This document shows positions 1-55,466 of a stretch of DNA of 64,000 nucleotides, in pieces. The notes beneath the pieces were generated by a model. The model ran no database searches, was not told where the DNA came from, and saw nothing but the letters and a program-made list of their open reading frames with translations. The position numbers and the translations under genes are program-made. Each line of letters begins with the position of its first letter. The first letter of the stretch is position 1. Source of the stretch: Chiloscyllium plagiosum (Eukaryota); assembly GCF_004010195.1 (NCBI RefSeq), contig NC_057755.1, positions 9,401,306 through 9,465,305 on the forward strand, written 5' to 3'.

Positions 1-674
1 CCACAACAGAATGAAACTTCCCGAGATAGCAAAGAGTAAAACAATACATTTCTTTCGATTCTTCATCTCTGGATCACATTGTTTATAAATTGTGTGACTC
101 TGAAGCCCTCTGCGTGCTTTACTTTTGATAAGTATACACCTGATGGTCAGTGAATTAAACAGGGCAATAAAAATGAAAGGCATCCAAACCAAACAGATGC
201 TGTAAAACCAGATGAATACGACTCCTGCAATTGAAGAAAAGAATGCCACACTTGCCTGACAGTTCCACTCCACACTATTAATAATGTGTTCAGATTCATA
301 TGCAAACAAAACCGGAATATCCTTGATGCACATGAAGACACAGCTAATTGTTGTAACGGTGCGTGCAATTCGCTCAGTGCAATATGTTGCCTTTAACTTT
401 GGACAGCAGATGACGACAAAGCGATCAAAAGTGAATGTGACTGTGAACCAGACTGATGAATCAATTATAACACAAGCTATATAATAAATAAATTTACAAA
501 TATGTGTATGAGAGAGAAAAGACAATGGAAAGTGATATGTAAGAATGCTATAAATTATTACATTAATGATTATGACCAGTAAGTCTGCTGTTGCCATGGC
601 AAGTATATAGACAGAGATACATTTCGAGAGGCCACAGTTTCCTCGTACAAGAATGATGATCGTCATTATGTTCA
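1..674 (-). CDS. GPR139-like class A GPCR, copy A, coding exon 2 (continues past left edge)
   Basis: Acceptor ttacag|TGAAC at 676-675. Hand translation gives 225 stop-free codons: VNIMTIIILVRGNCGLSKCISVYILAMATADLL...TFDRFVVICC...WNC...RKKCIVLLFAISGSFILLW. Colinear with 45799-46472 with no net indel. Probably absent from the ORF track because it has no stop in the window. Confidence 0.9.
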
Positions 675-1789
675 CTGTAAGTAAGGACAGAAACATTGAC
701 TCAGTATTTTAAAAGTAATCAGAGAAATGAAATATCAGTTGTAGATCAAGTTACTAGAGCAACATCTGGGGTCCTGAAGACAGATTCTGGATTAGTAATT
801 ATCAAGCACCACTCACCTCAAAGGATCTGTGTATTAATGAGTTTAATTTGAAGTTCTGCCCTGAGAAATGACAATGGAAGTCAAAGAGTCAGTGAGGAGT
901 TCAGCAGATTAAAAAGAAATGACAGTTTGATGCATTGAGACTTGACCAGTTGAAAAGAAACGACCTATTCTAACACGATTTTCTCGCACTATGTCCATTA
1001 CCTTGGTATGATAAAAAAACTGTATCATTCTTAAGTGCGACAAGGAATTTATAACTAACTGAAATGTAAATATAAATCGATACATCTTGCTCATAGCCCC
1101 CTTCATGAAAGTGAACCTTTCAACTGCTATACTTGCTCAGTCCCCTCTATAGTGCAATCATATGAGCACACCACCGCGTCCTACACCCGCCCACCTCCTA
1201 TCATATGCATTCTAGAACTGGGCAGAGTACAAATCTTCCAAACAATAGCTTCTCCATTCCAATTCCAAGTACGTTTTAGAGGCATGAAAATTCTTTATTC
1301 CTTAATATTAATGTTCCGTTGCAGAAGCTTATCATGAACAATTAATTGACAAAACGACAACCTTGCTGAATAGAGCACAACTATTCCTGTTGTCAGAATG
1401 TCGTGAACTGGGGCCTATACCTTAAGCATCACTTTTAAATGGATAATAAAGATCTTCAGAACATTTACATGCAGATAATACTTATTGACATGAACGCAAA
1501 AGGTTTGACATCTGAAACCTGAATGTACATGGAAGCTAATCGATATTCCAAAACAGGAAGAGTTTTCAAGAAACATCAATCAACCCCAGCTAATGCCATC
1601 CCAACATATTGTCTTGTCAACTTCTTCGGGATATTAATCGAAGTCTTCCCCTCTCTACTATCAATAGGACCTATATCCATGAAGCTAGGTTTCAAAATGA
1701 AGTAGAGATAAAGAAAAGGATTGAGATACAAAACCAGAACTTTCTGGAAAACCTCAGTCGAGCTTAGGTAGAAACAAATCTGAATTTGT

Positions 1790-2327
1790 GTAGAAGATTA
1801 TGAATGAAACACAAGCAAAAGAGAACAGAGTAACAAATAACTGAAGCTGTCCGAAAGCCCAACAGATCATCACAACTTAATGATGCTGTTCCAAATGTTT
1901 GCAACAATTCCCATAAACACCCCTTGGTACAAAAGTTAAAATCAAATACAGTGCCTTACAAGAGAGGCATGTCAGAGAGAGAGAGAGATCGTGGGAGATG
2001 GCAATATGAAACACCCTCTCCCATGTAGATGTGACTCGGATCAGCAGCCAAAAAAAGGCTGACTGCTCTCAGTGAATAGCTGGACTTGGAAAAATGAAAT
2101 CAAACCAGGGAACAGCTGAGCAGGGAGAGCTGACCGCTCCCTTTTCATTGTACAAGGTATTTTGTTTGAAAACTTTGAAAGCCTTTTTCATGAGACAATA
2201 TCAGTTAGCTATAATCAATTGGTGCGAAAACTCATCCAAGTCATACATTTCGGAATCCTTTTTATGACCTCTCTGAAAAAAGACATCAACCACAACAAAA
2301 TATTGTAAAAGGAGCAACATCATCACA
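1790..2327. mobile_element. Solo-LTR-like repeat in intron of copy A
   Basis: Homologous to 11170-11643, 47597-48127 and 54960-55423; ends in ggagcaacatcatcaca (CA terminus). Confidence 0.5.
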
Positions 2328-4369
2328 GTGATCGCAAAATTGTACTATTCTTTTGGAGACTGTTTCATTTCCAACAAATGTTGTAAACAACATTCCACCA
2401 TCGTGGAGGAAATAGGTGATCATCCAAGTCTCTGAAGAAGCAGAAGACAGCCAACATGGAAAAAATATTAAACTCAACCTCTGAAGAAAAAAATGGGGAT
2501 ATATTTTGAAATGTTCAATGAAAATTGTTTGAAAAACAAGATGGATTGCATGTCTAATCATTTCAAGCCCAAAAAACCCGAAAGTTTTTTGGAATCCATG
2601 ACTGAATATAATATTAAATAATGTTCAATAACGTATTTTGGAAGATATTTGAGACGGAAAAGGAACAGGCCATGACAGCACAAAGAACAGTTTTTGACGA
2701 TGTGGATAAATGTGATCGAAGCAGAAAATAATTGGAATTCTAGTTAATACAATCAACCTCTGAAGAGAAACTTCTTTTTCATTAGGGTCATTAAAACATA
2801 ATTTGTTTCGCATTGTTATCTGCATTTAATCATCATCTGAATAGTGAGCATATGAGTGGAGCCCAGTTTGAATATAATACAAATGTCCAAATAGGTTTCC
2901 ATTTTTCATTCTGGGAATTAGGTTCTCAACCCATAAAGGGTTTTATATATAGAGCAAATAAAAAGAGATGTGAAGGGGTTACCCAGGATTCGAGACCAAG
3001 GAAAATGGAACTATTGAGCGAAGTATCATCAGAGCAAAAGGCCTCAGTAGGCTGTGGATAAGGGGCAGAAGCAATCGAAAGTAGGAGATACAGTTTGCAA
3101 GATGATTTTCATCAAAATGATAAAGGAATTTGGCCAAAATGAAATAAAATTCTTGCTTTAAACGATACACAGCAAGGGACCAATATATGGCCTGTACAAA
3201 AGAGGAAATTTCCTTGTCGATTTGGCATATGCCAATGGCAAAAATGCAGATAACATATACCTGCATTCCACTTATAATGTGGAGAAAGAGGTTATGCTGA
3301 AACAGAGACTGGATTCTGTAAAGTGATTGCATTCCCTTTTTCAAATAATTCAAGCACAACAATCTGAAAGCAGGATGTTGGGGTAGTTCAAAGAGAAAAT
3401 ATGATAATAGGAAAAAAAAACCATACTTCCAATTTCTTGTACCTCTATTTTTACTTTGTTTCACAGAATGTCATCCTCCTTACTTAGGGTAGCTACGGAT
3501 GACCATCAATAATTGAGCAAGGGTAGGTAGTAGAGAGCCACGATTTGAATTCAGAAGTTCGTGTTGATAAAACTGTTGCCACGACCGTTTTTTGAACGAC
3601 ATTCAAGGTCACCAGTGCTAACTAGGAACACACTATACATCCACTTGCACACTTACTTTATTTTTCTCATGCACAAACTCTAATTCAGGATGTCCAATGC
3701 CACATGCATGAACGTTACTGCGGGAGTATGCTTGCCGGATTCATCCTGAACATGGTGAACAACATTGATACGTTGCATAATTGCATCAGGGAACAAGTAT
3801 TCAAGAGCGAGTGCCATTCATTTTAAGGAACAGGGTAATAATATCGTCGAGTGACAGAAGTCAAAGTTATAAGGCTTCAACGTTATCGTGCTTTTGTGTG
3901 CACGAATGAAGAGGATTGGGCATATTATACAGGGTAAAATAAATCTCTAAAGAATTTAGATGGTTTCCAAATTCATATGCATTTTGTCATGCAAAATGGT
4001 ATTTACATTGAGAGTAGAATAATTAAGCGCACCACAAGAGATTATTGAATGAAAATTAGGAAGCTTTGAATCCTCTTTTTATTGGCACAATATTTTGCTT
4101 TAGAAAACCCGGAAGGTTTGAATCTTTGACACCCAAACGATTGGACAGGAGTGAACACGGATACACACTGCAAACACTAAGTTTGTAAAGCATCCCAAAT
4201 TACTCTTGGTTCATAAATTTGTCATTGGAATTGGCTGAAACATTATTTTAGGATATTAAGCATAGCAACAAGAAATTCTTAGGGATTCTTGTCTCAGTAG
4301 CACTGGAATCACTGTACAAAAACAACAGCGACATGTGGAAGCCAGAGACGAGAAAGACAGTAGAAAGTA

Positions 4370-5550
4370 ACTCACCTCCTGGTTTTCTCAGAACCTGTCA
4401 ACCATCTACAAGCCAGGATTACAATGGAGTGCTCCTCACTTGGTTGAATGAGTGCAGCTGCAACTACTCTGAAGATGCTTGACATTATCCAGGAAAAGGC
4501 AATTCGTTGCTTAACACCAGACTCACAAGCAATCACTGTCTCCACCACCACAGATCATTAGATGTAGTTTTTTTTTAGTATCTAAAAGATGCACTGAAAC
4601 GGTTCACCAAGATCGTTTGACAGCAGGTTCCATGTTCACGCGACTTCCACCCAGAAGGAAAAGGGCAGCAGATACAAAACATAAGAAGAGATAAGGTAAG
4701 AGCACGAGTGGGCCATATGGCGCTTGAAGCCTGTTCTGACAGTCAATAAAATAATGGATGTTCTTTTCGTGGGCTCAGCTCCACTCAACTGCCCTCCACC
4801 AGAACGCATAATTCCTTTATTGTTCAAAAGAAGTATGTATCCGAGCTTTGAAAACCATTTACTGAAATAGCATCAACTACTTCACTGGGCAGCGAATTCC
4901 GTAGATTCACAACCCTCTGGGTGAAGAAGTTCTTCCCAATTCTGCTAAATCTGCTCCCCTTAAATGTCGAGCTATGTCTTCTTGTCCTAGTTTCACCTAA
5001 TGGTGGAAGCATTCTCTCTACGTCTATTTTATGTATTCCATTTATAATTTCATGTTTCCGTCGGATACACTCTAATTCTTCTAAATTGCAATGAAGGCAA
5101 TGCCGGTCTACTCAATCTCTCCTCATAATCCAACTCTCAACTCTCCAATCAGCCTTATGATACTCCTCCGCACTGTTTCTACTGCCAGTACATCCTTTTC
5201 AACGTAAATAGAGGAACAGCGCTCCAGGTGTGGCCTCACCAGAACCCTGTACAGCTGCAATGTAATCGCCCTGCTGTTTAGCTCAATCCTTTTAGACACA
5301 ATTCCATTTGTCATCATGGGATCACAATTACGAGCAAGTTCTCCTCCAAGCCATGTAAAATCCTGACTTACAACTAAATCACCATTCGTTCACTGTCGGT
5401 AGTACAAAATCTTGGATCTTCATTGGTAAAGGCATAATATGATCGACCGACAACATGTTGACTACAGTGGCTCAAAAATAATAGCTCGACATTGCCTTCT
5501 CATGGAAAACTACGGACGGGCAACTCAATGAATGACTACCATATCACAGG
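4370..5550. mobile_element. Old LINE 3' fragment with nested minus-strand CR1 3' end (~4690-5315)
   Basis: ORFs 5123-5317 (LQLYRVLVRPHLE) and 4824-5012 (FFTQRVVNL) are CR1 ORF2 C-terminal motifs. Flanks resemble a LINE tail interrupted at ~4690. Confidence 0.7.
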
Positions 5551-6554
5551 AATAAATAAATAAATATGTAAAGCGGTGACAGCATGAATTCATGAAAAAA
5601 GAAAATGCATGGGAGTCAAGTGAATGGATTCTACAGCTGAAAACACTGATGAGAGGAAAGGAGACGAATCTGTCTCTAAATTGGCAGAAAATGTTTCAGC
5701 ATTTAATCCATGAAAGATTGGTGAACATCATTAGTTTCATGCACTCGAACAAACATAATTGGCCTGGATAAAAGGAGTGAATTGACAAAGGAATCGATAA
5801 TGGAGCTGAGGTTCCTGGCCATCTTTGAGCAGAATGATGGGAGCCAAAGATTCTTCCAGCACACGTTCAGAATTTACGGGAGCAACTATCTCAAAGTTGT
5901 GGCAAAGATTGGACAGATCTGTAGCTGGGTAGAAATTCACAAACACCAATGAGGTGAATGAGCAGTGAGATGTATGTGGGATTTATGCATCTCGTGAGAG
6001 ATAATCTCTTTTCTCTGAATAAGTAGTTGCCAAAAAGACGGATGCAAAGAGTGTACCCTTACAGATTGGTACAGAATTCGTGTGAATCATTATCAACATA
6101 CCGTGGGATCATGCTCAGCAAAGCAAGTGAAATCTGTTTATCTCTTCTTTACCTTTATTTAGCGTTCTGCTATCTACGGTACATTGGGGTAATGAGTTCT
6201 ACAGATTCACAGCCCTTTGCCATATGTGGATCCAGTCTTCCATATTTGCTTGAAATCTGTTCCTCCCTCCTAAACCTCTGAACTCTCGTTCTAGTTTCCC
6301 CAAACGAGGACACATGCCATAAACATATTCATTGTCAATCACGTTTCGGTGAATTCAAAGATCAAACAAATGGTAATGAAATTATCACCTCCATGAAACA
6401 TGGACAATGTGAATACATGGTTTAAAAGTGCGTAGTGGAAACATCTGCCCGTGCATCATTGAGACCTGATAAACATTACAGCTTACCCAAAACAGATTTG
6501 GAACTCTGAAGCAATTCACACAAATTGACAATATAAATTTGAAACTGGGCTTAC

Positions 6555-6624
6555 CAGGGAAGCCAACCGTTGCAAGAATTGGATAATATATCTCCTTTAT
6601 CAACAGGATCATTGGCCGTTCCAT
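6555..6624 (-). CDS. GPCR copy A, coding exon 1 (MERPMILLIKEIYYPILATVGFP, phase 1)
   Basis: 70 nt from ATG to donor G|GTAAGC. Joins exon 2 as G+TG (Val), giving TM1 IYYPILATVGFPVN. Near-identical to 50443-50512. Confidence 0.88.
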
Positions 6625-6869
6625 TTTTCTGAGGAAGGATAACTTCTGTTTGACGAAAGAGACTCAGACAGGTGCTCGTCAGTGCCAGAAGAGCATCTGC
6701 TATTTATCTGCACTTGTTCCCTCAAAGGAATTTACGAGGTCTATAAAGAATAAAGTATGGGTGCAGGCCTCTCACAAGGGAAGACCCACAAACAGTTTTT
6801 TTTTGGATCAAAGTTATGAAGACATGTCATTAAAGTATTTGCTGATTCAAATTGCAAAGACATCTTGAT

Positions 6870-7880
6870 TAGCTGGTCAATGGGCTGTGATGAAGCAGGT
6901 CGAGTTTAATTTAGGTAAATGCGAGATATTGCATTTCAGAAAACAAACAAGAGCAGAACTTACGCAATTAATGTTAGTGCCCGAGGTAGTGTTGTAGATC
7001 AGAGAGACATACATGGTTCTGATATTTTTTTTTTTCAAATTTGTATCACAGGTTAGTAGGGTGGTTAACGAGGCGTTTAGCACGTTTGCCATAATAGATC
7101 AGACTTTTGATCTTAGATCACATTCGAATCTGGTATAATGCGCATGTCTTCAAAACGAATAGTCCATGATATGATTGATTAATTTAGAGCGTTCTTTGTG
7201 AAACGTGAACTTCCAGTCGAAGTGTTTTAAACGGTTTGGCTCTCAAACGATTTTCTTATAATACGAGAATGCACATGAATAGACTATCGTGCTACACCAC
7301 AACAGACTGCATCATAGTTGTGCCACCGTTTTGAGGGTTGTACACAACGTTGAATATTACTCTTCCATAGTACCATGGGAGTTCTGTTAACCGTGTTATC
7401 AGAAGAACATCATTAAATTGGAGAGGGGTCACGAAGAATTTAGGACAATGTTGCTGATATTGGAGGTTTTGAGTTATCAAAATAGGCTGGATAGATATAT
7501 GAAGTTAAGTGGACACCTAGAAGAGGTTTATAAAATCACAAAGGGCACATGTAAGCGAGGGTCTATTCCCGAGAGTGGTGGACATCAAATCTAGTCGTTT
7601 AATTTTTCAAAGTGTGAGGAGAAAGTTTTAAAAAGAACATGAGCGGCAGCTTTTCCAACCGTGTATGATTGGTCTGTGAATGAACTGTCAGGAAACGTGG
7701 TGGATGCAGGCATACTTACAACATTTAAAATACCATTGGATAAGTACATGAATAGCTACAGTTTGGAGGGTTGTGGGTCGAACACAGGCAAGTGGGTCTA
7801 GTTGTGTTTGGGAACATGGTTGGTGTGGACAAGTCATACTGAAGCATCCGTTTGAACAACTTGTAAGTTTTTGACTCTGT
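6870..7880 (+). mobile_element. Degenerate CR1 LINE 3' fragment (paralog ~50740-51750)
   Basis: Degenerate CR1 RT C-terminal and 3' tail sequence (gagtttaatttaggtaaatgcgag, gaggtttataaaatc). Confidence 0.65.
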
Positions 7881-9807
7881 CTAATTTGTCAATGACCTTA
7901 TTTATTCGTGATGGATGTCACAACTACGAATGCATTGGAGTGGGCAGCAGATGGCGTAGACACATCGATTGTAATCTCTTCCTTGAGTGGAAATTCTGAA
8001 ATGCCTTTGCATTTAAACTAGCACCAGTTGTCACTCTGTATATCGAGCCATCAGTCCTGTGGCCCATTGTGATGACAATGAATTTGCATTTACGTAATGA
8101 CACACTGTTGTCCCTGTCCACGTCTTGATTGAGAGCATTATCCAATCATTTCGTTCCTCACTGAAGGATTTGCCATGTGGACTGTCTCAGTGAACAATAT
8201 TGCATGGAAACAGTGAAAGTGGAAAATATGAACTCTAAAGCCATTACTTGCGGTGTCATTTTCGCATCCGCGAGCTCACACTGACACTTGCTGAGATCAC
8301 CACTGATCTGATAGAAGCACAGATCAATTTTCCTGCTTTCTATTGCCCAAGACGACTCACACACTAAATTCCCTGGCATATCCTTGGAATCCCTACTCAA
8401 CCAGAAATCCATAATTGTCAGGCTTTATTGCATTTGGTTCCCCAATCAGCCCTACAGACAGGAGAGGAGATTTCCCCAGCCCTCAGAACTCTCTGAGAAA
8501 CAACCTTCATGTCTGTCTACATTGACAGATGGATTTCTAAAATTGAATTGCACTGGAAGTGTTAATGAGTGGATTTCTGTATTCACAATGAACCGAGCAG
8601 TACAAAATTCCTCAGAAGGACTGCATAAACAACAAAGAGCTACCTGGCATTTCTCCGGAACTCTATGGCTCTCATTCTCAATAGTCAAACAATAGCCAAA
8701 CAATGGAAATATCTTTTTCTTTATCAAACCTGACTTCATGTCTTAAAATCTTCAAAACATTAATGATTCAACTCTCAACTTTCTAAATTCTTGTGAAAGC
8801 AGGTTTAATTTGTAAAATTCTCATCATAACCCTGGACGTCAGTTACCATTCTTGTAACCTTACGTTATACTAACTGTAAGTCGAAGATGTTCTTGTTAAG
8901 ATATGATGAACCTTTAGGTCAAGGAAAATACACCGTTGCCTCTCCACAGGCAAATTACTAAAGCTGTGAAATAACAAATTAATCAAAGTATTCTGCCTTA
9001 CATAGTTATTTTTAGGTTGCCTATGAAAGATGAATGAAATCAAAGGAGTGCAGTGAGGCAACTTGGGTGATCAAGGAAGAGGACGTGATTTGGACTGAAA
9101 TCTCTTGTGAATCATGCAATTTTCAGCAGATTTATTAAAATCTGTTTGGAACAACGGCACGACAGTAATGTTATAGGCAGGCATTTAGATAATGTAACAG
9201 TCGATGTCTCAGGAGCTCAATTGTAGAAGGTTACTGGGGTGGAAGTGAAGTATAGTTTGGGATGGCACTGTTAAATGGTCAGAGTCCGAAATAATGTGGA
9301 CATGCCAGTGTTTGGCCCGGTGTGGAAAAGACAAAAGTCGTATGATAAGTGCGTATAGTACTACTGATGTATTATAAATCACAAGTTTTCAGAGCGATGC
9401 TCCTTCATCAGTTTATGTGGATGGATGCACACCGGCACAGAATATCTCGAAGGAGTTGTGGTTTCATATGACATTTGACGTAGTCCTAAATGATACGAAT
9501 CTCGCCGTCTTGTGACGTGAAGATTGATGGATTTGTTGAAAGAGGCAATGGATTTGTCATTTTTGCTGAGGGTTAGTACACGGATTCATAAGTTTAGTAC
9601 ATATCCCCCTGTGGCTACCTTAAATGACGTTAAGGGTAAAAACGAGTATGTGTAATGATAACTCCCTCAGCCATTCCTTCCAATTGTATCATTCTATGTG
9701 CTTGCTTTGCTTCTTCTTACCTCTGAAGAAAGATAAAGAATGGCTCGAGCCATGGTCGCATTTGAACCGAGGTAGAGTACATTATTGTTTGTGTGTTTGG
9801 ATTAATA

Positions 9808-10139
9808 GAGGTCTGCAGATGCTGGAGATCAGAGATGGAAATGTGTTGCTGGAGAAGCGCAGCAGGTCAGTCATCTCCAGCATCTGCAGACCTCATTTTC
9901 TCTTCAAAGATTTCAACCTACTGCGAATCCTCTTACAAGGATGCCTTCCTTGAAGAAGCTCTCTTCCTCCCTCTACAAAGGTTTCAGTGAGTCCCTTTCT
10001 CACTGCACCCCCCAGGTCATCTCCTCTGCTCAGAAGCTCTTCAGCCACTTCCTGAAGAAGGGCTAATGCCCGAAACGTCGATTCTCCTGTTCCCTAGATG
10101 CTGCCTGACCTGCGGCGTTTCTCCAGCAACACATTTCCA
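9808..10139. mobile_element. Short Penelope-derived insertion with inverted repeats and 14-bp TSD
   Basis: TSD tgtttggattaata at 9794-9807 and 10140-10153; empty site in paralog near 53827; shares terminal sequence with the Penelope element at 15067. Confidence 0.8.
10047..10084 (+). ncRNA. Putative minimal type I hammerhead ribozyme in Penelope terminal repeat
   Basis: CTGAAGA-A-GGGC-TAAT-GCCC-GAAAC-GTC matches the CUGANGA / stem II / GAAA / NUH core. Confidence 0.55.
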
Positions 10140-10479
10140 TGTTTGGATTAATAATCTAGTAACAACAACGGTGGACCACCGCTTCAATTTTGAGCTTCAG
10201 AAAATATTGTTGATGGACTGTAGTGGCTGCATGGTTCATGCATTACAATGAAGAATGCAAATGGAAGCTGATGCTCCATAACCATTTGATATCACCAGAA
10301 TAATCGAATGATGGACATCTTCAATTTTGTTACTAAGCAGACGTCATTGTTTCTAAAGCTCCTCGCAAGAAGAGTCTGTCACATTGGAAAATCAACAGAT
10401 AATCTTAAATTAATTGTCAATATAATTCTTGAGAGTGGATATTGAGATCCCTCCAGTTACAGAATAACAGAACACCAAT

Positions 10480-11683
10480 TACCTGCGAGCTCCATTGGCG
10501 AAAAGAATATGTTGAATTGTCAAGCAATTTATTAAGGATATCAAGAAAAGAGAATCTAAGAAACTAAAATACTGTGTAATCAGGAGAATGATACAGCTCA
10601 TTGCAAATTGAAAAAACTCAACTTGGTGTGACAAACTGACTGGAAATGATCCAATACTTGTTCAGTTTTGTATCAAAATTGAAACGGTTTTCTCACAGAA
10701 AAGCAGAGAAGTGGTGCTCATTTTAACTGCAGCCACTGTCCTTTCTTCTGGGTGCACTTTGTCTTCAGACTCTCACAATACGCTTCAATCAAATATGAAC
10801 ATTGCAGGGAACCAGACTGCCGTTGAAAGGCTGACTGAGTTCAATAGCGTTTTAAAATACTTTTAAAACAAAACTCGAGTAAAGGAAAGAAGGAATGTGT
10901 AACGTGATGACCGAAAACGTGTTAGACAGTTACACTGAACATCATGATCAGAAGAAATGTTATTTCCAAGGCCTACATGTAGGTAGAATTACGTTCATAA
11001 AGGCCGCAGTGATGTGGACCAGGGCAGACCGACTCAAAACATTTCAAGAAGGTAACCAAGACCCCGACTTCTCCAACTGCATTAAGCAAATGTACAGTAG
11101 TTATTCTAGTTGTGATGTAGCTGGACAAATCCCCTCAGTTTTAAAAGAAACAGGAATGATTTACAAGGTAGAAAATGAAACCCAAACAAAAGAGAACAGA
11201 ATGCAGGATAATTGAACCTTTCCGAAAATCCGACAGAGCATATCAAATGAAAATGCTGTTCCAAATGCTTGCAACATTCGCCATAAACACGTCCTTATTG
11301 AAAAATAAGTAAAATCAGACAGAGGTTTTACAGGAGAGAGGGATGGAAACGAGATTTAGCACGGAACCACGAGATTTAGCATGGATTCTCGAGCTGTTTG
11401 TTTGGATTCCCCAGATAAAAACTGACGGGCAACTCTGAGCAGTCAGCCTGCTAACACCAAATCAAACTAGAGAAAATTTGAACAGGGAGAGCTAGCTACT
11501 GTCCTTTCATTGCACGTTTTTATTTATTGAAAAGCTTCTTCAAGTAGATAAACCCGGACATAGTGGAACTCGTGACAAGAAAACCCTCTGAAAAAATGAA
11601 ATTAACGACGGCATAACTTTCTTAAAGGAGCAACGTCGTTACATCAGTTTCTCCTGGGGAGAATTTCCATCGTCACCGGTTTG
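10480..11683 (-). pseudogene. Highly degenerate GPR139-like GPCR pseudogene (TM1-TM5), split by solo LTR
   Basis: Acceptor ttgcag|CAAAC at 11685-11684. Reads AN.VTMEILPRRN, then the LTR, then CGLYERNSTYM*ALE...HVFGHHVTHSFF...VWFPAMFIFD*...HILFANGARR. Confidence 0.75.
11010..11643. mobile_element. Solo LTR inserted in GPCR pseudogene (paralog ~54810-55423)
   Basis: Starts tgatgtggacc and ends gtcgttaca; flanks gcag/tcag; GPCR reading (NC|G) resumes exactly on both sides. Confidence 0.65.
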
Positions 11684-11759
11684 CTGCAAGTGGAATCAAT
11701 ATCACATTTAAATTGTGATTTCTTAGAAACCAAAACTTCTCAAATTTTATTTTGAAATA

Positions 11760-14204: not shown

Positions 14205-15066
14205 AGAATGAACAACAATTTTAAATTGTGATATGTTAGAAATCAATAATATGCAAATTCCGTTGTTAAATACACAAAGTCTTAGCCAATGAGACTAATT
14301 AACTTTGGTATTTTTATGTATTTGTTTTAAAGTGTCGTAAATTGCATTATGAAATAACAACACACTTTGTCCACTGAACAGAATGTCTGAAAGTTGGCTT
14401 TTTTCTGGCATCCTCGAGTCAAGTGCTTTCAATGATTACATGAATGGCAGTGTTCAAAAGCAGTTGCCTTCGGAGTGCGTTAATATAATTTGACATGGAG
14501 CTTAATCTTCAAATCATGTATTCACAACACAATACAATTAATATATCCAGTATCCATTAAACATGATTCCACTGGTTCATTACTGGACATTTAAAATAAC
14601 CAGTGCCACGTTTTATCAATAACTGAAAGCAGATCTGGGCTTTATAACTTAAACAAAAAAAATGAGCAAATTCTTCTCAGTGCATTAACTTCAGGAAGGG
14701 TCAAGTTAAGCAGACAAAGGCTGTTCGAACTAATCACTACGATTTAACTCAATCCTCTTTAACTTTCACCCTATCTCTCAGACAAAGATAGAGAGATAAT
14801 TAGGTGCAGTTAACCAATCAATCATGAGGAATAAAAATTAATGATATGTAATTGCAAAGTTTACTTCAACAGTTTATATATTCCATAACATCGCAGGCAT
14901 ATGGACATGTTGCTTGCTTGGTTTTTGATTACACAGATGCGTACTTTCAGCTTCCAATAAGCTCCAGGAAATACTAAATGGATTCTCAAAACTGATGATG
15001 TATTCTCTGAAATTCCAACATAGAGATGATGAACGAACAGATAAAAGTAGTGGTAGCTGGTGCATT

Positions 15067-20110: not shown

Positions 20111-20439
20111 TACCAATAAAGCAGAACCTCTAAACTCTTCTAGATTCTCTTCTCGATGGATCAAGTATTAGGATATTATTCTCAAACGTTACAGCTTTAA
20201 GAACCTTTAGATCAAAGAAGATGCATCCTTGCCTGTTTCCAGCTAAATATAATAAGCTGTGGATGAATAAATTAATCAAACTACTCTGCAACGGCCTATT
20301 ATTTTTAGACTCCCTGTGAATGAAAAAGAAAACCAAAAGTTCAGTGGGGTAACGATGAAATACAATGTGATGAGGGAAGAGAAAGGTGATTGGGCAGGAA
20401 TCGCTTGTGAATCATGCAATTTTCATCAGACTAATTAAT

Positions 20440-31420: not shown

Positions 31421-31499
31421 ACATATCTCCTCTACCAGTAGAATGATTATCTGTTTCACCTTTCTGAGAAAAGGCAAGCTCTACTTCACGGATATGGGT

Positions 31500-40330: not shown

Positions 40331-40339
40331 TGTCTTCAT

Positions 40340-42580: not shown

Positions 42581-43424
42581 GTAATCATAGTCTGCTCCAA
42601 ACGACAAATTTTGAGAAAGTTATTTTCATGTTGTGGTCATGAATGTGTCAGTGAATATCATAGATTCAAAGTGAATTACAGCAGAGAAAATGGACAACTA
42701 GCAAATCAAGTATTCAGCAGTCCAAAACAGCCACCGAAATATTCTATTACCATTTTCCAGCACAAGGCCTAGAAACATTGTATGCAGTGGCATTGTAAAA
42801 ACACATCTAATTATTATTTAAATGTCATGAATGGCTCCACCTCTGACAGTCTTACAGTTATTCAGTTCGAAATTCTCATCATCCTCGGAATGAAAACATT
42901 TTTCATCTAATTTTCACAAAGCCGTTTGCCCTTAACTTACATCTAGGCCCCATGGTCACTGATACTTCTGATAATGGGAAAAGTGTCTTCCGGTCTACTT
43001 GCCCATGCCACTGAAACGTTTGTGACTTGCAAACATGTCTGCACCCAACCTCTTCTGCTCTAATGCTTGCACTATCAATTATGTTACTTACCTCTCTGCA
43101 TAAATCATTATGTCAAGCTCAGGCAACATTCTGTTAAATCACTTCGCGATTTTCTTCAGTTCAACAGCAATCTCCTAATTATGGGGATTCTGCAACTGCG
43201 CACAATGCAGAATTTCCAAAAGTAGATTGTCCATTTCAGTCACACGTTCACTTTAGTGAGATGCAAAATTCACCAATACTGATGTTCTCTGTTTGCCAAT
43301 TTGAAAAAAACATTTAATTTTAAAGTACACAACATTGTCTCCCTTATTTAACCTTGAATTAATTATTCTATAGCTGTGATTTGGATTACACCAAGAAAGT
43401 GAGATGATGTCGGGTTGTCGGATT

Positions 43425-43507
43425 GAACATGAACTCAAAAATCTCAGCATTCTTCCAGCTTCATCTGCGATAGAGGGTGGATTTCCAAAGTCTCTCCGGT
43501 AACAATT
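43425..43507 (-). pseudogene. Isolated GPCR ECL3/TM7 fragment
   Basis: Reads YRRDFGNPPSIADEAGRMLRFLSSCS; closest to 34065-34146 of pseudogene C. Confidence 0.75.
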
Positions 43508-45552: not shown

Positions 45553-46472
45553 TTAAATACTTCTTCCTTTACTTTTCAAACATTTTACAGTGAATGCACA
45601 GGATAATTTGAATACATACATTAGCTCTTTTCTGAATTTCCTCTGGGTTACTGCGTAAATACATGTGTTTGAACAGGAACTTAAATACCTCAGCATGGCT
45701 CCAGTTTCGACTGCAATGTATCCTGGATTTCCAGGGTCTCCTCGGTAATAATTGGGATTTGCGATTCTGGTCATTACAAGGTTTATCACAGTTGTCATCC
45801 ACAACAGAATGAAACTTCCCGAGATAGCAAAGAGTAAGACAATACATTTCTTTCGATTCTTTAACTCTGGATCACATTGTTTGTAAATTGTGTGATTCTG
45901 AAGCCCTCTGCGTGCTTTACTTTTGACAAGTATACAACTGATGGTCAGTGAGTTAAACGAGGCAATAAAAATGAAAGGCATCCAAACTAAACAGATGCTG
46001 TAAAACCAGATGTATACAAAACCTGCAGTTGAAGAAAAGAAAGCCACACTTGCCTTACAGTTCCACTTCACATTATTAATAATGTGTTCAGATTCATATG
46101 CAAAAAAAACTGGGATATCCTTGATGCACATGAGGACACAGCAAATTGTTATGACTGTGCGTGCAATTCGCTCAGTGCAATATATTATCTTTAATTTTGG
46201 ACAGCAAATAACGACAAAGCGATCAAAAGTGAATGTGACAGTAAACCAGACTGATAAATCAAGTATAACACAAACCATATAAAAACTAAATTTACAAATC
46301 TGTGTATAAGAGAGAAAAGACAACGGAAAGTGATACGTAAGAATGCTATAAATTATTACATTGATGATTATGACCAATAGGTCTGCTGTCGCCATGGCAA
46401 GTATATAGACAGAGATGCATTTCGAGAGGCCACAGGTTCCACGCACGAGAACGACAATCGTCATTATGTTCA
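45553..46472 (-). CDS. GPR139-like class A GPCR, copy E, coding exon 2 (intact; 329 aa with exon 1)
   Basis: 306-aa ORF with TM segments, MATADLL, TM3 Cys plus ECL2 WNC, TFDRF, NTCIY, helix 8 KFRKEL; acceptor ttacag|TGAAC. The ORF-track GTG start is the split codon. Confidence 0.93.
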
Positions 46473-47596
46473 CTGTAAGTAAGATCAGGAATGTTGACTT
46501 ATTACTTCAAAAAATAACAGACAAATGAAACATCAATAGTAGGCCAAATTACTAGTGCACGCTAAACACCAACATCTGGAATTCCTGATGACAGATTATG
46601 ACTTAGTAATTAGCAAGCACTACTCACCTCAAATGACCTCTGTTTTAATGAGTTTAATTTGAAGTTCTGCTCTGGAAAGTGACAATCGAAGTGAAAGAGT
46701 CAGCGAGGATTTCCACAGATTTAAAAATAAGACTGTTGAGACATGACCAGTGGGGAAAAAGTGACCTATTCTAATACCATTTTCTCGCACTATGTCTATG
46801 ACTTTGGTTAAATAATGCATATTTGCGTACTTCTTAAATGCTGTGAGGGATGTACAACTAATTTAAATACAAGTTATAACTAATTTAAATACTAATTTAA
46901 ATCTATATCTCTTGCTCATAGTGCCCTTCCGGAAAGAGAACCCTTCAACTGCTATTTTTGCTCAGTGCAAGTGCAATCATATTAGCTCACCACTGCGCCC
47001 ACCCACCCCCGCCCCCCGTCACATGCATTCTAGAACTGGGCACAGCACAAATCTTCCAAACAGTAGCTTCCCAAGTACACTTTAGAGGCATGAAAATTCT
47101 TAATTCCTTAATATTAATGTTCTGTGTCAGCAGCTTATTGTGGTCAATAATTATCAAAATGACAACTTTGTTGGATAGACCACAGCTATTCCTATTGACA
47201 GAATGTCGTAAACTGGACCCTACGCCATAAGTATCATTGAGAAATGGATAATGCAGATCATCAGATTATTTACATGCAGATAATATTTTCTGACATGAAC
47301 GCATCAGTCTTAACACCTGAAAACTTAATGTACATGGAAGCTAATCAACATTCAAAAACGAACAGTTTTCAAGAAACATCAATCAACCCCAGCCAATGTC
47401 TTCCCAACATATTGTCTCGCCAAATTCCTCAGGTTATTAATTGAAGTCTGCCCCGCTCCAATGTCAGAAAGAAACTATTTTCATGGAGCTAGGTTTAAAA
47501 CCGAACGAGAAAGAAACAGAAGGATTGAGATGCAACAACAGAACTTTCTGGAAAACCTCAGTAGGTGTATTGGAGAAACAAAACAGCATTTATTTG

Positions 47597-48127
47597 TAAG
47601 ATTATGAATGAAACACGTACAAAAGAGAACACAGTAACAAATAAATCAAGCTGTCCAAAAACCCAACAGATCATCATAACTTAATGATGCTGTTCCAAAA
47701 GCTTGCAACAATCCCCATAAACTCACTAGGCACAACAGTTAAAGTCAAACACAGTGGCTTAAAACATAGAGATGTTAAGAGAGAGAGAGAGAGATGGCAG
47801 CATGAAACACCCTCTTCCAATGTACTTGTAACTTGGAGCAGCAGCCATAATAAAAGACTGACTGCTTTCAGTGAATAGCCAGACTTTCAAAAAGCAAACC
47901 AATCCAGAGACAGGCTGAGCTGGGAGAGCTGATAATTCCGTTTACATTGTACAAGATATTTTTTTTGAAAAATTTGAAGCCTTTTGCATGACGCAGTACT
48001 TGTTAACTATAATCAACTCGCCCAAAAAGCCATCCTAACCAGTCTTTTCGGAATCCCTTCTATGACCTCTCTGAAAAAAAACACTTCAACCACAACAAAA
48101 TGTTGTTAATGGAGCAGCATCATCACA
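47597..48127. mobile_element. Solo-LTR-like repeat in intron of copy E
   Basis: Paralog of 1790-2327. Confidence 0.5.
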
Positions 48128-50442
48128 GTCGCATCAAAATCTTCTCCCATTCTTTTGTAAACCCTTTCATCTCCAACAAACGCAACATCAGCATTCTGCC
48201 GGAGAAGATAGGTGATCACCAAAGTCTCTGAAGAAGCAGAAGACAGCCAGCATGGAAAAATATATGAAACTCAACCAGTGTGGTTAAATTCAGTAAGACG
48301 TAATGGGGATATATTGTTGAGATGTTCAACGAAAATTATTTGAAACGCAAGATGCATTGCATGCCTAATAATTTCAAGGCCAAAAACAGAAATTTTGTTT
48401 GGAATCTATGACTGAATATAATATTAAATAATGATCAATAACCTATTTTGGAGGATTTTTGAGAAGGAAAAGGAACAGTCCATGAGAGCACAAAGACAAG
48501 ATTTTGATGATATGGATAAATGTGATCGAAGCAGAAAATCATTGGAATTCTAGTTAATTCAATTAGCCTCTGAAGAGGAAGTTTTTAAAAAAATTAAGAT
48601 CATTAAAATTTCGTGTTTTTTCGCAATGCTATCTGCATTTAATCAGCATTTGGATAGTAAGCATATGATTGGGGCACATTTTGCATATAATGCAGATGTC
48701 CAAATAGATTTCCATTTTTCATTTGGGGACTTTGGTAATCAAACCATAATGCAAAATAGAGCAGATGGAAAGATATGGGAAGGGATTATTCAGGAATCGC
48801 TACTAACGAAATGGAATTATTAAGCGAAAGATTATCAAAACCAAAGGCCTCAATTGGTTATGGATACAGGGCAGAGAAATCTAAATTAGGAGTTACAGCT
48901 TGCAAGATGATTTTCATCAAAATGGTGAAAGGAACACAGCCAAAATTAAACGAAATTCATGTTTTAAGTGATGCACAGCAAGGGAGCAATATATGATCCA
49001 TAAGAAGGAGTTGATTTCCTTGCCAATTCAGCATATGCCAATGGCAAGAATACAGTTAACATTGTATCTGAATTCCATTTATAATATGGAGAAAGAGGTT
49101 ATGATGAAACAGATAGAGACTGGATTCTATAAAGTGATGCATTCTCTTGTTCATATAAGTTAAGCACAGCAATCTGAAAGCAGGATGCTGAGATAGTTAA
49201 AAGCACGATCAAACCGAAAATATGATAATAGGAAAAAAGTCTTAGAATGTGCCAGACTTCCAAATTCGTGTACCTCTCTTTCTATTTTGTTTCACAGAAT
49301 ATCATCCTCTTTACTCAAGGCAACTATGGGTGACCATCTCTAATTGAGCTTGAGAATATAGTAGAGAGCCACAAATTGAATTTAGCAATGCGTGTTGATG
49401 AAACAGTTGCAACGAACGTTTTATGAAGGACATTCAAATTCACCAGTGATAGCCAGGGAAACTATATAAACCCACTTACACTTGTAGTTTATTTTTATCA
49501 TGCACAAACTCAAATTCAGGATGTCCAATACCACGTGCACCGACGTTACTGTGTTCTGAACATGGTGAACAACATTGATACATTGTCTAATTGCACCAGG
49601 GAACAAGTATTCAAGAGCGAGTGTCTTGCATTTAAGAAAAATGCAAATGATGTCGTCAAGTGTCAGGAATCAAAGTCATAAGTCTTCAAGGTTACCGTGC
49701 ATTTGTGTACATGAATGAAGAGGATTGGGCACGTTATACAGGGAAAACCAATCCATAAAGAATTTGGATGTTTTCCAAATTCATATGCATGTTGTCATAC
49801 GAAATGATATTTACATAGCGATTAGAACAATCAAGTGCACCACAAGAGAGTATTGAATGAAAGTTAGGAAATTTGGAATCCTCTTCTTTTCGGCTGTCTT
49901 TTACTTCAGTAAATCTGAAAGGGTTGAATCTATGGCACCCAAAAGATTGGACGGGGTAACCACGGATACCTACTGCAAACACAAAGCGTGTAAAGCATCC
50001 CAAATTACTTTTGGTTCATACATTTGTCATTGAAATTGGTTGAAATATTAATGTTAAAATATTAAGCACAGCAATAAGAAAATTTTCGGGATTCCTGTCT
50101 GAGTAACAATGGAATTGCTGTACAAATAGAGTGGCGATAAGAGTAGGCATGATACGAGCAATACTGTAGAAAGTAATTCACCTCCTGATTTCCCAAAGCC
50201 TGTCCACCGTCTACAAGTCAGGATTGTTAATCACTTTTCGTTGATTTTAAACCTCAATCATATGGGAACAAAATTGACACCTCCAGGAAACAGGGCCAAT
50301 GTGAATACATGGTTTAAGAGTGCATGGAAACATCTGCCCGTGCATCATTGAGATTCGAGAAATATTATAGCTTACCCAGAATAGATTTGGTACTCTGAAG
50401 CAATTCACACAAATTGACGATATAAAGTTGAAACCGACTTAC

Positions 50443-50512
50443 CAGGGAAACCAATTGTTGCAAGAATTGGATAATATATCTCCTTTATCAACAGAATCAG
50501 TGGCCGTTCCAT
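50443..50512 (-). CDS. GPCR copy E, coding exon 1 (MERPLILLIKEIYYPILATIGFP)
   Basis: 70 nt from ATG at 50512 to consensus donor G|GTAAGT; phase matches exon 2. Confidence 0.9.
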
Positions 50513-53500
50513 TTTTCTGAGGAAGGATTATTTCTGTTTGACGTGAGGGACTCAAAAAAGTGCTTGCCAGCGCCAGAGGAGGCATCTTCTCTTTATCTGC
50601 ACTTCACCCCTCAAAGGAATTAGCGACGTCGGTTAAGAATAAAAATTGGGTGCACAATTCTGACTAATAGGCTCACAAGCAGTTTTTTTTTGTTCAAACA
50701 TATGAAGACACATCATTAAAATAACTGTTGATTCAAATTACGAAAAGATATTGATCAGTTGGATCAATGGGCTGAGAAGTGTCAGATAGAGTTTAATTTT
50801 GGTAAATGTGAGATATTGCATTTTAGAAAACAAACAAGAGCATGACTTATACAATTAATGTTAGCGCCAAAGGTGGTGTTGTCGATCAGAGAGACATACG
50901 TGGTTTTGACTTTTTTTTTCACAACTTTTTATCACAGGTCAGTAGGGTGGTTTAGGAGGCGTTTATCACGTTGCCTTACTGGATCAGAGTTTTGATCTTT
51001 GAGCACAGTAGTATCTGCTAGAATGTGTATATCTTCAAAACGAATTGGCCATAATACGATTGATAAATATTTAGTGTTGTTTGTGGAACTGGAACTTCTG
51101 GTAAAAGTGTTTTGAACAGTGCGGCTACTGCTTCGTTTTCATATAATATGGGATCGCACATGAATAAACTATCATGTTACTTCACAACAGATGGTATCAG
51201 AGTTGTGCCACCGCGTTGAGGTTTGTACAGAACGTTGAAGAGTCCTCTTCCATAGTACCATATGCGGTTCTATTAGTCGTGTCACCAGAAAAAAAATATT
51301 AATTTGGAGAGGGGTCGCAAAGGATTTTCAAGAATGTTGCTGAAATTGGAGGTTTTGAGTTATCAAAATAGGCTGGATAGTATATGAAGTTGAGTGGAGA
51401 CCCAATAGAGGTTAATAAAATCACGAAGGGCAAACATAAGCGAGCGTATATTCCAGAGAGTGGCGGAGTTCACTTCTAAGTGGTATAAGTTCTGAAAGTT
51501 AGACGAGAAAGTTTTTAAAAGAACATGAGTGGCACCTTTTCTGACCGTGTATGATTTGACTGTGGAATGAACTGTTATAAAACATGGTGGTTTCAGGTAT
51601 AGTTACAACTTTTAAATTACCTTTGGATAAGTGTTTGAGTAGCTATACTTGGAAGGGATGTGGGTCAAAAACAGGCAAGTGGCAGCATGGTTGGTGTAGA
51701 CCAGTTGGACTGAAACGTCTGTATTGACGACTTATAACTCTTTGACTCTATCTTATTTGTTAATACCCTTATTTATTAATGATGGGTGTCACAACTACGA
51801 ATGGAGTGGGCAGCAGAGGGTGCAAACGCCTCGATGTGAAACCTCTTACTTGAGTTGAAATTCTGGAATGCCTTTGCTTGAGCATCATTCATAATTTCAG
51901 TAGACCGAGCAGCTGTTAATTAAAATGACCTGATGCCAGCATGGCGGGTTTACTTCTTGCTGAGGCTGTAGTCTCGACTGAATTTTCCACTCCAATATAC
52001 TTTTCTCTTGGTTGAGATGTGGTGACACTGAATTTAAACCAGCACCATTTGTCTGTCTGTGTAACGAGCCATCAGTCCTATGACCCAGTGCAACGTTAGT
52101 GAATTTGTATTTGCTTAATCACACACTGTTGTCCTTGTCCACGTTTTGATTGAGAGCATTATCCAAACATTTCCTTCCTCACTGAAAAAATTGCTGTGTA
52201 TACTGCCTCAATGAACAATGTTGCATGGAAACAGTGAAAGTAGAAAATATGAACAGTAAAGTCATTACTTGCAATGTCATTTTCGCAGCATCTATCTCAC
52301 ACTGACACTTTATGAGATCACCACTGATCTGAGAGTAGCACAGATCAATTCTCCTGTTTCTCTATTGCCCACTACGACTCATACACCCGCCTCCCTGGCA
52401 CATTCTTGGAACCCGTTCTCAATCAGAAATCCATCAATCTCAGCCTGAAATGCATTTGGTTCCCCAACTAACACTACAGGCGGGGAGGAGATTTCCCAAG
52501 CCCTCAGAAGTCTCTGAGAAACAAGCTTCATGTCGGTCTGCAATGGCAGATGAATACGTAAAATTGAATTGGACTCTAAGGTTTACGAGTGGATTTCTGT
52601 ATTCGTAATGAAACGAACAGTACAAAATTCCTCACACGGACTGCTTACACAACAAAGAGCTTCCAGGCATCGCTCCTGAACTTCCCAGCTCTAATTCTCA
52701 CAGTGTGCCCCCTCATTGCAAAATAGTCTTACAATGGAAATACTGTATTTTTTTAATCAAAGTTCTTTTCATGTCTTAATATCTTCAAAAACTTAATGAT
52801 TCACCTCTGAACTTTCTAAGTCTTTCAGGAAGCAGCGTTAATTTGCAAGTTTATCCTCATAACCCCTGGACTCCAGTTACCATCTTGTAAACCTATGTTA
52901 TATTAACTGTAAGTTGAAGATGTTCTTGGTAAGATATTGTGAACCTACATGTCAAGAAAAATACATCCTTGCCTCTTTCCAGGCAAAATACTAATGCTGT
53001 GAAATAACAAATTAATCAAAGTATTCTGCCTGACATAGTTATTTTTAGCTTGCTGATGAAAGGTGAATAGTAATAAAGGAGTGCACTGGGGCAACTTGGG
53101 TGATCAAGGAAGAGGAAGGTAATTTGGACTGGAATCTCTTGCGGATCATGCAATTTTCAGCAGAGTTATTAAAGAACCAAAATTTGTTTGGAAAAACTGC
53201 ATGACAGTACTGCTATAGGCAGGATTTAATTAATAGAACAGTCGATGAATCAGGAGTTCAATTTTACAAGTTTGCTGATGTGGAAGTAAAGCTTATTTGG
53301 GATGGCATTGTTAAATGGTCAGAGTCCTAAATAAGGTAGATATGCGAGTGTTTGGCCCGTTGTGGCTAAAGACAGAAGTCGTTCGATAAGAGCGTATAAT
53401 ACAACAGATGTACTTAACATCACAAGCTTTCAGAACCCTACTCCTTCATCAATTTAAGTGGATGGACAAACACCGGCATAGAACGTCTTGATTGAGCGTA

Positions 53501-54129
53501 GTTTTGTATGACCTTTGACTTAGCACTAAATGATTCTAATGTTGCCGACTTATGACATGAATATGGATGGATTTGTTGAATGAGGAAATTGGTTTGTCAT
53601 TTTTACTGAGGACTAGTACACGGATTCAAAATATTGGTGCATATCTCGCTGTGGCCATCCAAAATGACATTAGGGGTAGAAACGACACAATTCCCTCAGC
53701 AATCTTTTCCAATTGTTTCATTCGGTGTGCTTACTTTACTGCTCTTTATCTCTCATGAAAGATATAGAACTGCTCGGGCTATGGTGGGATTTGAACCAAG
53801 GTAGAGCAGGGAACATCATTACTTGTGTGTTTGGATTAATAATCTAACAATAACAACGATGGGCAACTGCTTCTACTCTGAGTTTGAGAAAATATTGTTG
53901 ATGAACTGCAGTCTCTGCATGGTTTATGCATTACAATGGAGAATGCAAATGGAATCTAATGCTTCATTCTCATTTAGCATCACCAGAATAATCGAAGGAA
54001 GGATGTCTTCAATTTTCTTGCCGAGCAGACATCATTGTTTCAAAAGCTCCTATTAACAAGAGTTGGTCACATTGGAAAATCAACAGGTAATCTGAAATTC
54101 GTTACCAGAGTGGATAACAGGACACCAAT

Positions 54130-55466
54130 TACCTGCGAGCTGCATTGGCAACTAAAATATGTCTGGATTAGCGGTGCTGGAAGAGCACAGCAGTTCAGGC
54201 AGCATCCGAGGAGCTCCTCGGATGCTGCCTGAACTGCTGTGCTCTTCCAGCACCACTAATCCAGAATCTGGTTTCCAGCATCTGCAGTCATTGTTTTTAC
54301 CGAACTAAAATATGTCGAATGGTCAAGCTGTTGATTAAGGATATCAAAGAAAAGAGAATCCAAGGAACTAAAATACTGTGTAATCAGGAGAATGCTACTC
54401 TTAATCGCAAAGTAAAACAAAATTCAACTTGATGCGACAACCCGACTGCAAATTATATAATACTTGTTCAGTTTCATATGAATACTAAAACAGTATACTT
54501 ACAGGCAAAGCGGGAAAACGGTGCACATTTTAACTGCAACCGCTGTCCTAACTCTGGAACACTTGCTTTCAGACTCTCACAATACGTGTCAATGAAATCT
54601 GAGCTTTTCAGTTAAACACTTTTGACATTAACAGGCTGACTGATTTCAAGAGCTCTTTTAAATCTGCAAAAAAAAAACATTCGATTAAAAGTGAAGAAGG
54701 AATGTGTAACGTGATGACCGAAAATGTGATGCACAGTTACACCATAGATCATCATCAGAAGAATTTCCATGGCCTCCATGTCGTCAGAATTAAGATCAGA
54801 AAGGTCGCAGTGATGTGGACCAGGCCAGACCCCCACAAAACATTTCAAGAAGGCAACTAAGACTCCGACTTCCCTAATTGTGTTAAGCAAATATACAATG
54901 GGCATTCCAGGAGTGATTTAGCTGGTTTAAAACCCCTCGGCTTTAAACGAAACAGAAATGATTACAAGGAAGCAAACGAAACACAAATAAAAGAGAACAG
55001 ATTACAGAAAAGACTTAACTTTTCTGAAAACCCGACAGACGATTTCAAATTAATGATATGGTTCCAAATGCGTGCAGCAGTCGCCATAATCACGTCCTTC
55101 GTTGAAAGAAAAGGTAAAATCAGACAGACGTTTGACAGGAGAGAGGGATGGCAACGAGATTTAGCATGGAATCTCCATCTGTTTATTTGGATTCCTCAGC
55201 TTAAACTGACCAGCAACTCTCAATAGTCAGAAACTTAAACGCGAAACAAACTGGGGAAAAACTGAACAGGGAGAACTTGCCACGAACCTTTTATTACATA
55301 GTTTTTTTTAAAGAAACTTCTTCAACTAGATTAAACGGACACAACCGAACTCATGACGTTATAGCCCATTTGAAAAGGGGAAATCAAGAACAACATAACC
55401 TTGTTAACGGAGTAGCAGCGTCAGAGTAGCTTCTCCTGGAGAGAATCACAATTGTCACCAGGTTTT
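54130..55466 (-). pseudogene. Degenerate GPCR pseudogene, paralog of 10480-11683, with solo LTR ~54810-55423
   Basis: Acceptor ttgcag|, then ENLVTIVILSRRS; ORF 54612-54905 contains CDLSDLNSDDMEAME.LLMMIYGVTVHHIFGHHVTHSFF. Confidence 0.75.
54164..54302. mobile_element. Penelope-derived fold-back insertion with 14-bp TSD
   Basis: TSD aactaaaatatgtc at 54150-54163 and 54303-54316; palindrome 54162-54265; empty site near 10500. Confidence 0.85.

Follow-up and report, generated by a model that had tools for sequence, protein, structure and literature searches.

An elasmobranch-expanded family of class A receptors with a conserved core and a variable pocket, met as a tandem array in Chiloscyllium plagiosum

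A stretch of 64,000 nucleotides from Chiloscyllium plagiosum (contig NC_057755.1 of assembly GCF_004010195.1; this whole 64-kb stretch is called the window below) holds a tandem array of seven receptor loci, labelled A to G, all located on the minus strand by six-frame translation and tblastn. Judged by features of their sequence, they are assigned to an elasmobranch-expanded family of class A G protein-coupled receptors (GPCRs) of the GPR139/GPR142/FMRFamide-receptor-like branch, whose members, on the same features, are not GPR139 orthologues. The family probably acts as a combinatorial, ligand-diversified detector of many external chemicals, a reading that we hold at a probability of about 0.65. 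It is a real and apparently undescribed receptor repertoire with an architecture of known kind, being neither a known chemoreceptor family nor plain GPR139.

Membership of class A rests on profile matches and motifs. Locus F, the one intact gene of the array, matches 7tm_1 and no other Pfam family (62.4 bits against a curated cut-off of 30.5), and 7tm_1 is matched by 60 of 60 family members. The product of F has N1.50, D2.50, C3.25, D/E-R3.50, P5.50, W6.48, N7.49 and Y7.53, residues found in 182-189 of 189 aligned relatives. The first-pass annotation, a model's reading of the letters alone, had set the array apart from the canonical olfactory families, and this holds good: no kinship with OR, TAAR, V1R or T2R receptors was detected, and the nearest solved relative is GPR139, the top solved-structure match of three profiles (67 versus 51, 146 versus 93 and 86 versus 69 bits), which ranks 11th of 15 when F alone is the query. 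On the first profile bony-vertebrate paralogues reach 184-206 bits and invertebrate-type proteins 107-110, compared with 67 for GPR139. The database neighbours of the family are FMRFamide-receptor-like clusters; GPR139 and GPR142 have been placed as sister to protostome RFamide/Wamide receptors (PMC8557429).

In an IQ-TREE analysis of 42 rows the expansion is monophyletic (support 85/94) and sister to a low-copy amphibian gene (98/97), a result with which FastTree on 98 rows agrees. A clade uniting the expansion with a second low-copy relative, a paralogue widespread in jawed vertebrates, was rejected (approximately unbiased test, p=0.010), the grouping tested having been framed once the trees were known. 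Both trees were built without true GPR139 and GPR142.

Both low-copy relatives resemble the expansion in build and are each about 29% identical to F. The amphibian gene (Pleurodeles, Microcaecilia, Xenopus, Bombina and others), present as one cluster per species among the matches listed, has an N-terminus of 24-26 residues and cysteines as in the expansion; its pocket is conserved (F3.33, W6.48, K6.51, N7.39), and S1.50 and N2.50 replace the usual N and D (P0210 and a subset of P0346-P0377). The wide paralogue, likewise short at its N-terminus and with the same cysteines, forms a separate clade with R6.51 in 40 of 40 members and no Trp at 6.48. Under the name 'probable GPR139' (P0213, P0218, P0283, P0338 and relatives) it occurs in coelacanth (Latimeria), ray-finned fishes (sturgeon, teleosts), amphibians, a turtle and sharks (catshark among them); no mammal or bird was found among the best 120 of its 179 matches. 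One Stegostoma model of this paralogue is named TMEM183A, which hints at an adjoining gene. Two more subfamilies of the same branch have R6.51 (P0243, P0269, P0252, P0236, P0246).

The functional reading turns on the contrast between a conserved core and a variable pocket. The alignment took in those elasmobranch proteins, 189 of 238 named, that are 300-360 aa long, together with 40 named proteins of the wide paralogue and 18 of the 19 amphibian rows. In the expansion R3.50, N7.49 and Y7.53 are each present in 189 of 189 proteins, W6.48 in 187, D2.50, C3.25 and P5.50 in 185 each, and the Cys of extracellular loop (ECL) 2 in 183, so that the cysteines joining transmembrane helix (TM) 3 and ECL2 are retained, at a median identity among the proteins of 51%. 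Entropy at 31 pocket positions is 2.18 bits. Helix positions outside the pocket (133) give 1.15 bits, and the remaining positions of the extracellular half (37) give 1.70 bits (pocket against the latter, p=0.008; in Heterodontus alone, p=0.015). In the two low-copy groups the relation is reversed, the pocket being the more conserved part (0.53 versus 1.06 and 0.09 versus 0.45 bits), and the overall divergence of the 40 wide-paralogue orthologues is close to that of the expansion (median identity 58% versus 51%). Signatures of eight pocket residues tell the same story: there are 54 among 60 Heterodontus proteins, 7 among 40 wide-paralogue proteins and 2 among 18 amphibian ones.

Which ligands such pockets might bind was approached through the residues on which GPR139 depends. 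A basic residue at 6x51 is required by GPR139 (PMC8807744), and its response to Trp and Phe requires F3x33, W6x48 and N7x38, with H5x43 needed for synthetic agonists (PMC5430874). In the expansion 6x51 is basic (Arg or Lys) in 6 of 189 members and Thr in F; Asn7x38 is present in 9 and Phe3x33 in 34. F has Cys, Tyr, Trp and Ala at 3x33, 5x43, 6x48 and 7x38 and keeps, 6x51 included, one of the five determinants; across the family no protein of the 189 has all five and 4 have four, as compared with four of the five in 18 of 18 sequences of the amphibian sister. Asp3.32 is a feature of TAARs and aminergic receptors; it occurs in 0 of 189 and is replaced by Val in F. Since 6x51 is so rarely basic and Asp3.32 is missing throughout, neither of the modalities floated by the first-pass annotation finds support: taken over the whole family, it is unlikely that Trp and Phe are sensed in the manner of GPR139, or amines in that of TAARs. 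A more plausible history would be an ancestral receptor for aromatic ligands whose pocket diversified after duplication.

The first-pass annotation had also called the repertoire lineage-specific, which does not stand: the expansion extends across elasmobranchs (sharks, skates and devil ray), and low-copy relatives occur in amphibians, bony fishes, coelacanth, turtle and sharks. Homologue searches at E<=0.001 gave the best 120 of 1228 clusters and the best 120 of 1840 clusters (8000 scored candidates), totals that may include distant GPCRs. All 240 matches listed are elasmobranch, the first 120 from sharks throughout and the second adding Mobula (3), Rhinoraja (2) and Leucoraja (1); there is no holocephalan among the 240. 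Low copy number, named in the first-pass annotation as what would speak against a repertoire, is not what other sharks have: distinct 90%-identity clusters among the matches listed number at least 69 in Heterodontus, at least 67 in Heptranchias and at least 53 in Pristiophorus, with at least 12 in S. canicula and at least 11 in S. torazame. The Heterodontus matches listed are spread over 21 contigs, of which 13 exceed 50 Mb, and one of these 13 carries 26 matches; the family is dispersed across many chromosomes. Batoid members sit with sharks in several subclades (Leucoraja 96/98, Mobula 100/99), and therefore the onset of the expansion predates the shark-ray split. The closest relatives of F among the matches listed come from Stegostoma and Chiloscyllium (74% identity), with which it groups at 100/100. 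These relatives (P0001, P0003, P0415; P0002, P0428) are carried by sequences 14.0 and 12.8 Mb in length, which suggests that the cluster in the window sits on a small chromosome.

Within the window all seven same-strand loci that had been reported are present: one intact gene (F), one open gene at the window edge (A), four pseudogenes (B, C, D and G) and one relic (E). Their parts, with the interrupting element and the duplicated blocks, are as follows.

1..674, minus strand: locus A, exon 2; frame open, truncated by the edge of the window at W6.48, after 248 codons
6555..6624, minus strand: locus A, coding exon 1; 70 nt, that is 23 codons plus 1 base, with a GT donor next to it
10482..11683, minus strand: pseudogene B; acceptor intact at 11683, insertion of about 0.6 kb past codon 35
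26006..26868, minus strand: pseudogene C, exon 2; acceptor AG mutated, one stop, four frameshifts, DRF motif decayed
28891..28919, minus strand: pseudogene C, 3' half of exon 1; GT donor present
28920..31418, plus strand: long interspersed nuclear element (LINE) of about 2.5 kb interrupting exon 1 of C; reverse-transcriptase domain at 30330-31043
31419..31459, minus strand: pseudogene C, 5' half of exon 1; GTG in place of the ATG of A and F
33959..35360, minus strand: pseudogene D, exon 2; acceptor mutated, DRF motif disrupted by a frameshift and a deletion, and a stop
43424..43507, minus strand: relic E; 84 nt of ECL3/TM7
45553..46472, minus strand: locus F, exon 2; stop codon included, spliced product of 329 aa
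50443..50512, minus strand: locus F, coding exon 1; 70 nt
54132..55466, minus strand: pseudogene G; duplicate of B, acceptor intact at 55466
1..18067, no strand assigned: block duplicate, copy 1, holding A and B; matches copy 2
45799..63911, no strand assigned: block duplicate, copy 2, holding F and G; may extend past the window end

The two open genes define the gene structure. The intron is 5880 nt long in A and 3970 nt in F, where it is of phase 1 with GT-AG borders; candidate poly(A) signals of F lie at 45161 and 45101, and A and F share 88% amino-acid identity across 248 codons. Features that had been ascribed to the array at large hold for part of it. The 70-nt first exon is whole in A and F (two of seven loci) and split in C, and none was found for B, D, E and G by nucleotide alignment and a scoring-matrix scan; the acceptor of the intron in TM1 is intact in A, F, B and G and mutated in C and D. 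The DRF motif is intact in A and F only (it is decayed in C and disrupted in D), and NTxIY in F and D only, A being cut before it. The N-terminus is short, with about 24 residues up to N1.50.

Decay takes several forms. B has several stops and frameshifts, and no TM6-7 was found for it; D carries an insertion of 508 nt in intracellular loop 3. G has in common with B its membership of a more divergent subfamily, the insertion past codon 35 and a stop close to codon 179; a short insertion bounded by a 14-nt direct repeat is its own. Identity to F is 28% for B (49/174), 47% for C (135/288), 54% for D (159/296) and 28% for G (47/169); F ranks first among 256 proteins as a match for D, and 170th and 199th for B and G. 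Frameshift-aware scores of 125-494 for the four pseudogenes and 61 for relic E lie far above those of six control regions (23-30), and with the canonical splice sites they rule out an artefactual or chance origin. The 256 query proteins revealed no eighth receptor locus in the window; one of them made an extra match at 37301-37396, a region that resembles the LINE-like N-terminus of one database model. The LINE in exon 1 of C is presumably CR1-like.

The window records how such an array is formed. Positions 1-18067 and 45799-63911 are copies of one another, at least 18 kb long, with 72-83% identity and a non-coding distance of 0.16-0.24, and thus A/F and B/G are duplicate pairs from one duplication; seven independent births are rejected on this ground. 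B and G differ by 0.224 (flanks 0.16-0.24), the neutral rate, and since they also have the insertion and the stop in common they descend from one already dead gene. Between A and F, dS is 0.205, matching the flanks, and dN 0.058, giving a dN/dS of 0.28 (bootstrap 95% 0.16-0.51); therefore both copies have been kept by purifying selection. The array grows by block duplication, and copies die through transposon insertion, stops and frameshifts. With the many clusters of other sharks, this bears out the proposal of an expanded birth-and-death repertoire of class A receptors. The extent first given to the array, 1 to 55466, ends at the exon-2 acceptor of G; the duplicated block continues to 63911.

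Relic E, rejected as a gene (84 nt, closest to D at 85% identity as against 76% to F), lies between the 3' flank of F and sequence homologous to the intron of C, and may be what is left of a complete copy, or a by-product of rearrangement. The sequence just beyond it, at 42620-43397, is homologous to 27065-27862 within the intron of C; it may be the intron of D displaced by LINE insertions, and exon 1 of D seems to have been lost at the junction beyond the relic. A segment of 240-260 nt occurs three times at about 72% identity (8908-9138, 20201-20460 and 52941-53194); two copies belong to the block duplicate, and the third stands apart from it.

As detectors, the paralogues would each bind a different small ligand. 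Because the N-terminus has only about 24 residues and no glycosylation site (a sequon occurs in 2 of 158 proteins with a short N-terminus), the ligand site would lie inside the transmembrane bundle. By analogy with the OR, T2R, FPR and MRGPR sets, the repertoire would work combinatorially. More weakly suggested are an ancestor whose pocket, like that of GPR139, accepted aromatic amino acids or the ends of peptides, a constraint that the expansion would have released, and signalling through Gq/Gi as in GPR139. The site of action may tentatively be placed in chemosensory epithelia (nose, taste buds, and solitary or gut sensor cells). A bolder version, possible though doubtful on present sequence evidence, is that a new vertebrate chemoreceptor family arose from the GPR139/FMRFamide-receptor branch in the shark-ray ancestor, takes the part in smell or taste of OR, TAAR, V1R and T2R receptors, which are nearly absent, and equals or exceeds the V2R family in size in several sharks.

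Several points weigh against detection of external chemicals. Five of the seven loci in the window are dead, and close relatives are few among the matches listed (at least 6 in Rhincodon, 5 in Stegostoma and 4 in Chiloscyllium); cluster counts can moreover include isoforms, alleles and faulty gene models. The pocket positions follow a presumptive list, with residues numbered through the alignment by counting from motifs rather than from a structural model, and the entropies ignore relatedness and set paralogues against orthologues. Between A and F, the sole pair compared as DNA, 5 of 30 changes fall in the pocket (20 positions), which is not significant (p=0.076). No expression or ligand evidence was found, GPR139 terms being absent from the supplements of PMC8455134 (12 of 24 files), PMC12361510, PMC10620051, PMC13188829 and PMC11406177, and in catshark OR, ORA and TAAR genes are expressed mostly outside the nose (PMC11979771); therefore family type does not fix tissue.

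The same mechanism might operate in another tissue. Surveillance receptors of FPR or MRGPR kind on leukocytes, skin and gut, directed at microbial or parasite molecules, would show tandem turnover and pocket variability equally well. Catshark or1 and or4 are spleen-specific (PMC11979771), zebrafish OR-kappa is found mainly in immune cells (PMC13113109), and sharks lack MAS1-related receptors, so that this role would be vacant (PMC8455134). Chemokine receptors, however, score below GPR139 on the family profile (51 versus 67 bits) and the N-terminus would be too short for binding of the chemokine type. Immune or barrier cells are an unlikely site, yet a substantial rival to the sensory one.

The remaining readings deny that ligands were diversified, or that they come from outside. 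Copy-number drift would make most members redundant or silent products of a duplication-prone two-exon gene in LINE-rich regions, with no selection for new ligands. The five dead loci agree with this, as do the passive duplication of B/G when already dead (insertion and stop in common, distance 0.224, the neutral level) and a report that batoid tandem arrays expand with genome size (bioRxiv 10.1101/2025.06.08.657570). It is nevertheless improbable in the light of the dN/dS of A/F (0.28), the near-invariant core at 51% median identity with variation concentrated in the pocket, and the subclades common to sharks and rays, which imply subfamilies that have persisted since before the split. Receptors for endogenous signals (neuropeptides, metabolites or reproductive cues) in brain, gonad or gut, comparable to GPR139/142 and protostome FMRFamide/MIP receptors, would accord with the identity of the branch, which binds peptides with aromatic C-termini (PMC8557429), and with the retained TM3-ECL2 cysteines. 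Receptors with a fixed ligand conserve their pockets, though, as both low-copy groups do, and we know of no matching ligand expansion, a point on which no search was made; such a role is hardly probable either. A ligand-diversified detector accounts for the conserved core and variable pocket better than either drift or endogenous ligands. As for plain GPR139 duplicates responding to L-Trp and L-Phe, a reading that the names in databases suggest, it is in their favour that GPR139 heads the solved structures with three profiles and that the acidic 7x35 and W6x48 are often retained. Set against this are the losses of basic 6x51 (6/189), Asn7x38 (9/189) and Phe3x33 (34/189) and a score of 67 bits, under both the bony-vertebrate paralogues (184-206) and the invertebrate-type proteins (107-110), and this identity would be very improbable indeed.

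Comparison with known systems places the family between receptor branches and chemosensory repertoires. The intron of human GPR139 presumably also lies just before N1.50. GPR139 and GPR142 have two exons, as has this family (PMC7318219), and share with it a similar TM1 motif, a position 7.50 without Pro, and W6x48; on the family profile GPR139 exceeds the next solved receptor by 67 to 51 bits. They are single-copy and highly conserved, whereas the family has dozens of copies per genome, Cys3.25 and the ECL2 Cys (the aligned residue of GPR139 at 3.25 is Asp), mostly Thr or Val in place of Pro6.50, DRF in place of DRY, and mostly lacks basic 6x51, Asn7x38 and Phe3x33. From the same branch came chemoreceptor expansions of invertebrates, the nematode srw family among them. 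That branch also holds the protostome FMRFamide type 1, MIP, proctolin and myosuppressin receptors (PMC8557429). The shark family is an independent vertebrate expansion: the Srw Pfam family was matched by 0 of 60 members and Srx, weakly, by 19 of 60. Tandem clusters, pseudogenes, a variable pocket and a short N-terminus recall OR, TAAR, V1R/ORA, T2R, V2R, FPR and MRGPR; from these the family differs in origin and in its coding intron in TM1, and none of their Pfam families was matched. OR, V1R/ORA and T2R have Pfam profiles of their own and intronless coding regions; these families were matched by none of 60 members at E<=0.01. The catshark repertoire comprises 8 OR-type, 3 ORA, 3 TAAR, 2 TARL and 32 V2R genes (PMC11979771), and such small class A sets leave room for a missing sensory family; the largest V2R cluster reported for a cartilaginous fish has 65 genes (bioRxiv 10.1101/2025.06.08.657570).

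No paper describing the expansion was found in full-text literature searches, in whose coverage subscription journals are mostly not included. In the accessible sections of two GPR139 reviews there is nothing on it (PMC7318219; PMC12208981, where 'shark' and 'cartilaginous' are absent), while databases already list genes of the family under the automatic name 'probable GPR139'. A whale-shark paper stresses a relative paucity of GPCRs (PMC8455134), and the class A chemoreceptors reported for sharks are very few (PMC11979771). Dozens of intact, pocket-diversified receptors under that label alter the class A chemoreceptor and GPCR count of sharks and bear on the old puzzle of a good sense of smell despite few odorant receptors. 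The low-copy sister gene of amphibians supplies an ancestral state against which the change from a conserved receptor to a repertoire can be compared. If sensory, the family would be a vertebrate parallel to the invertebrate chemoreceptor expansions from the same branch; if immune instead, it would still be an undescribed receptor system of sharks.

The rest of the window is of minor note. Among 40 selected open reading frames, 3 matched reverse transcriptase and no other gene type was met; no Rfam family matched in the window. A decayed element at 15500-17350 (minus strand), found in block copy 1 only and without a Pfam match, resembles Penelope-like retrotransposons. A frame at 58575-58934 (minus strand), inside sequence missing from block copy 1 and likewise without a Pfam match, we take to resemble an integrase remnant of a long-terminal-repeat retrotransposon. 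A (GACA)n microsatellite of about 40 units occupies 59319-59480. In many database models the match begins no earlier than codon 20-26, or the N-terminus is LINE-like (for example P0028 and P0039), consistent with gene predictors having overlooked the 70-nt exon 1.

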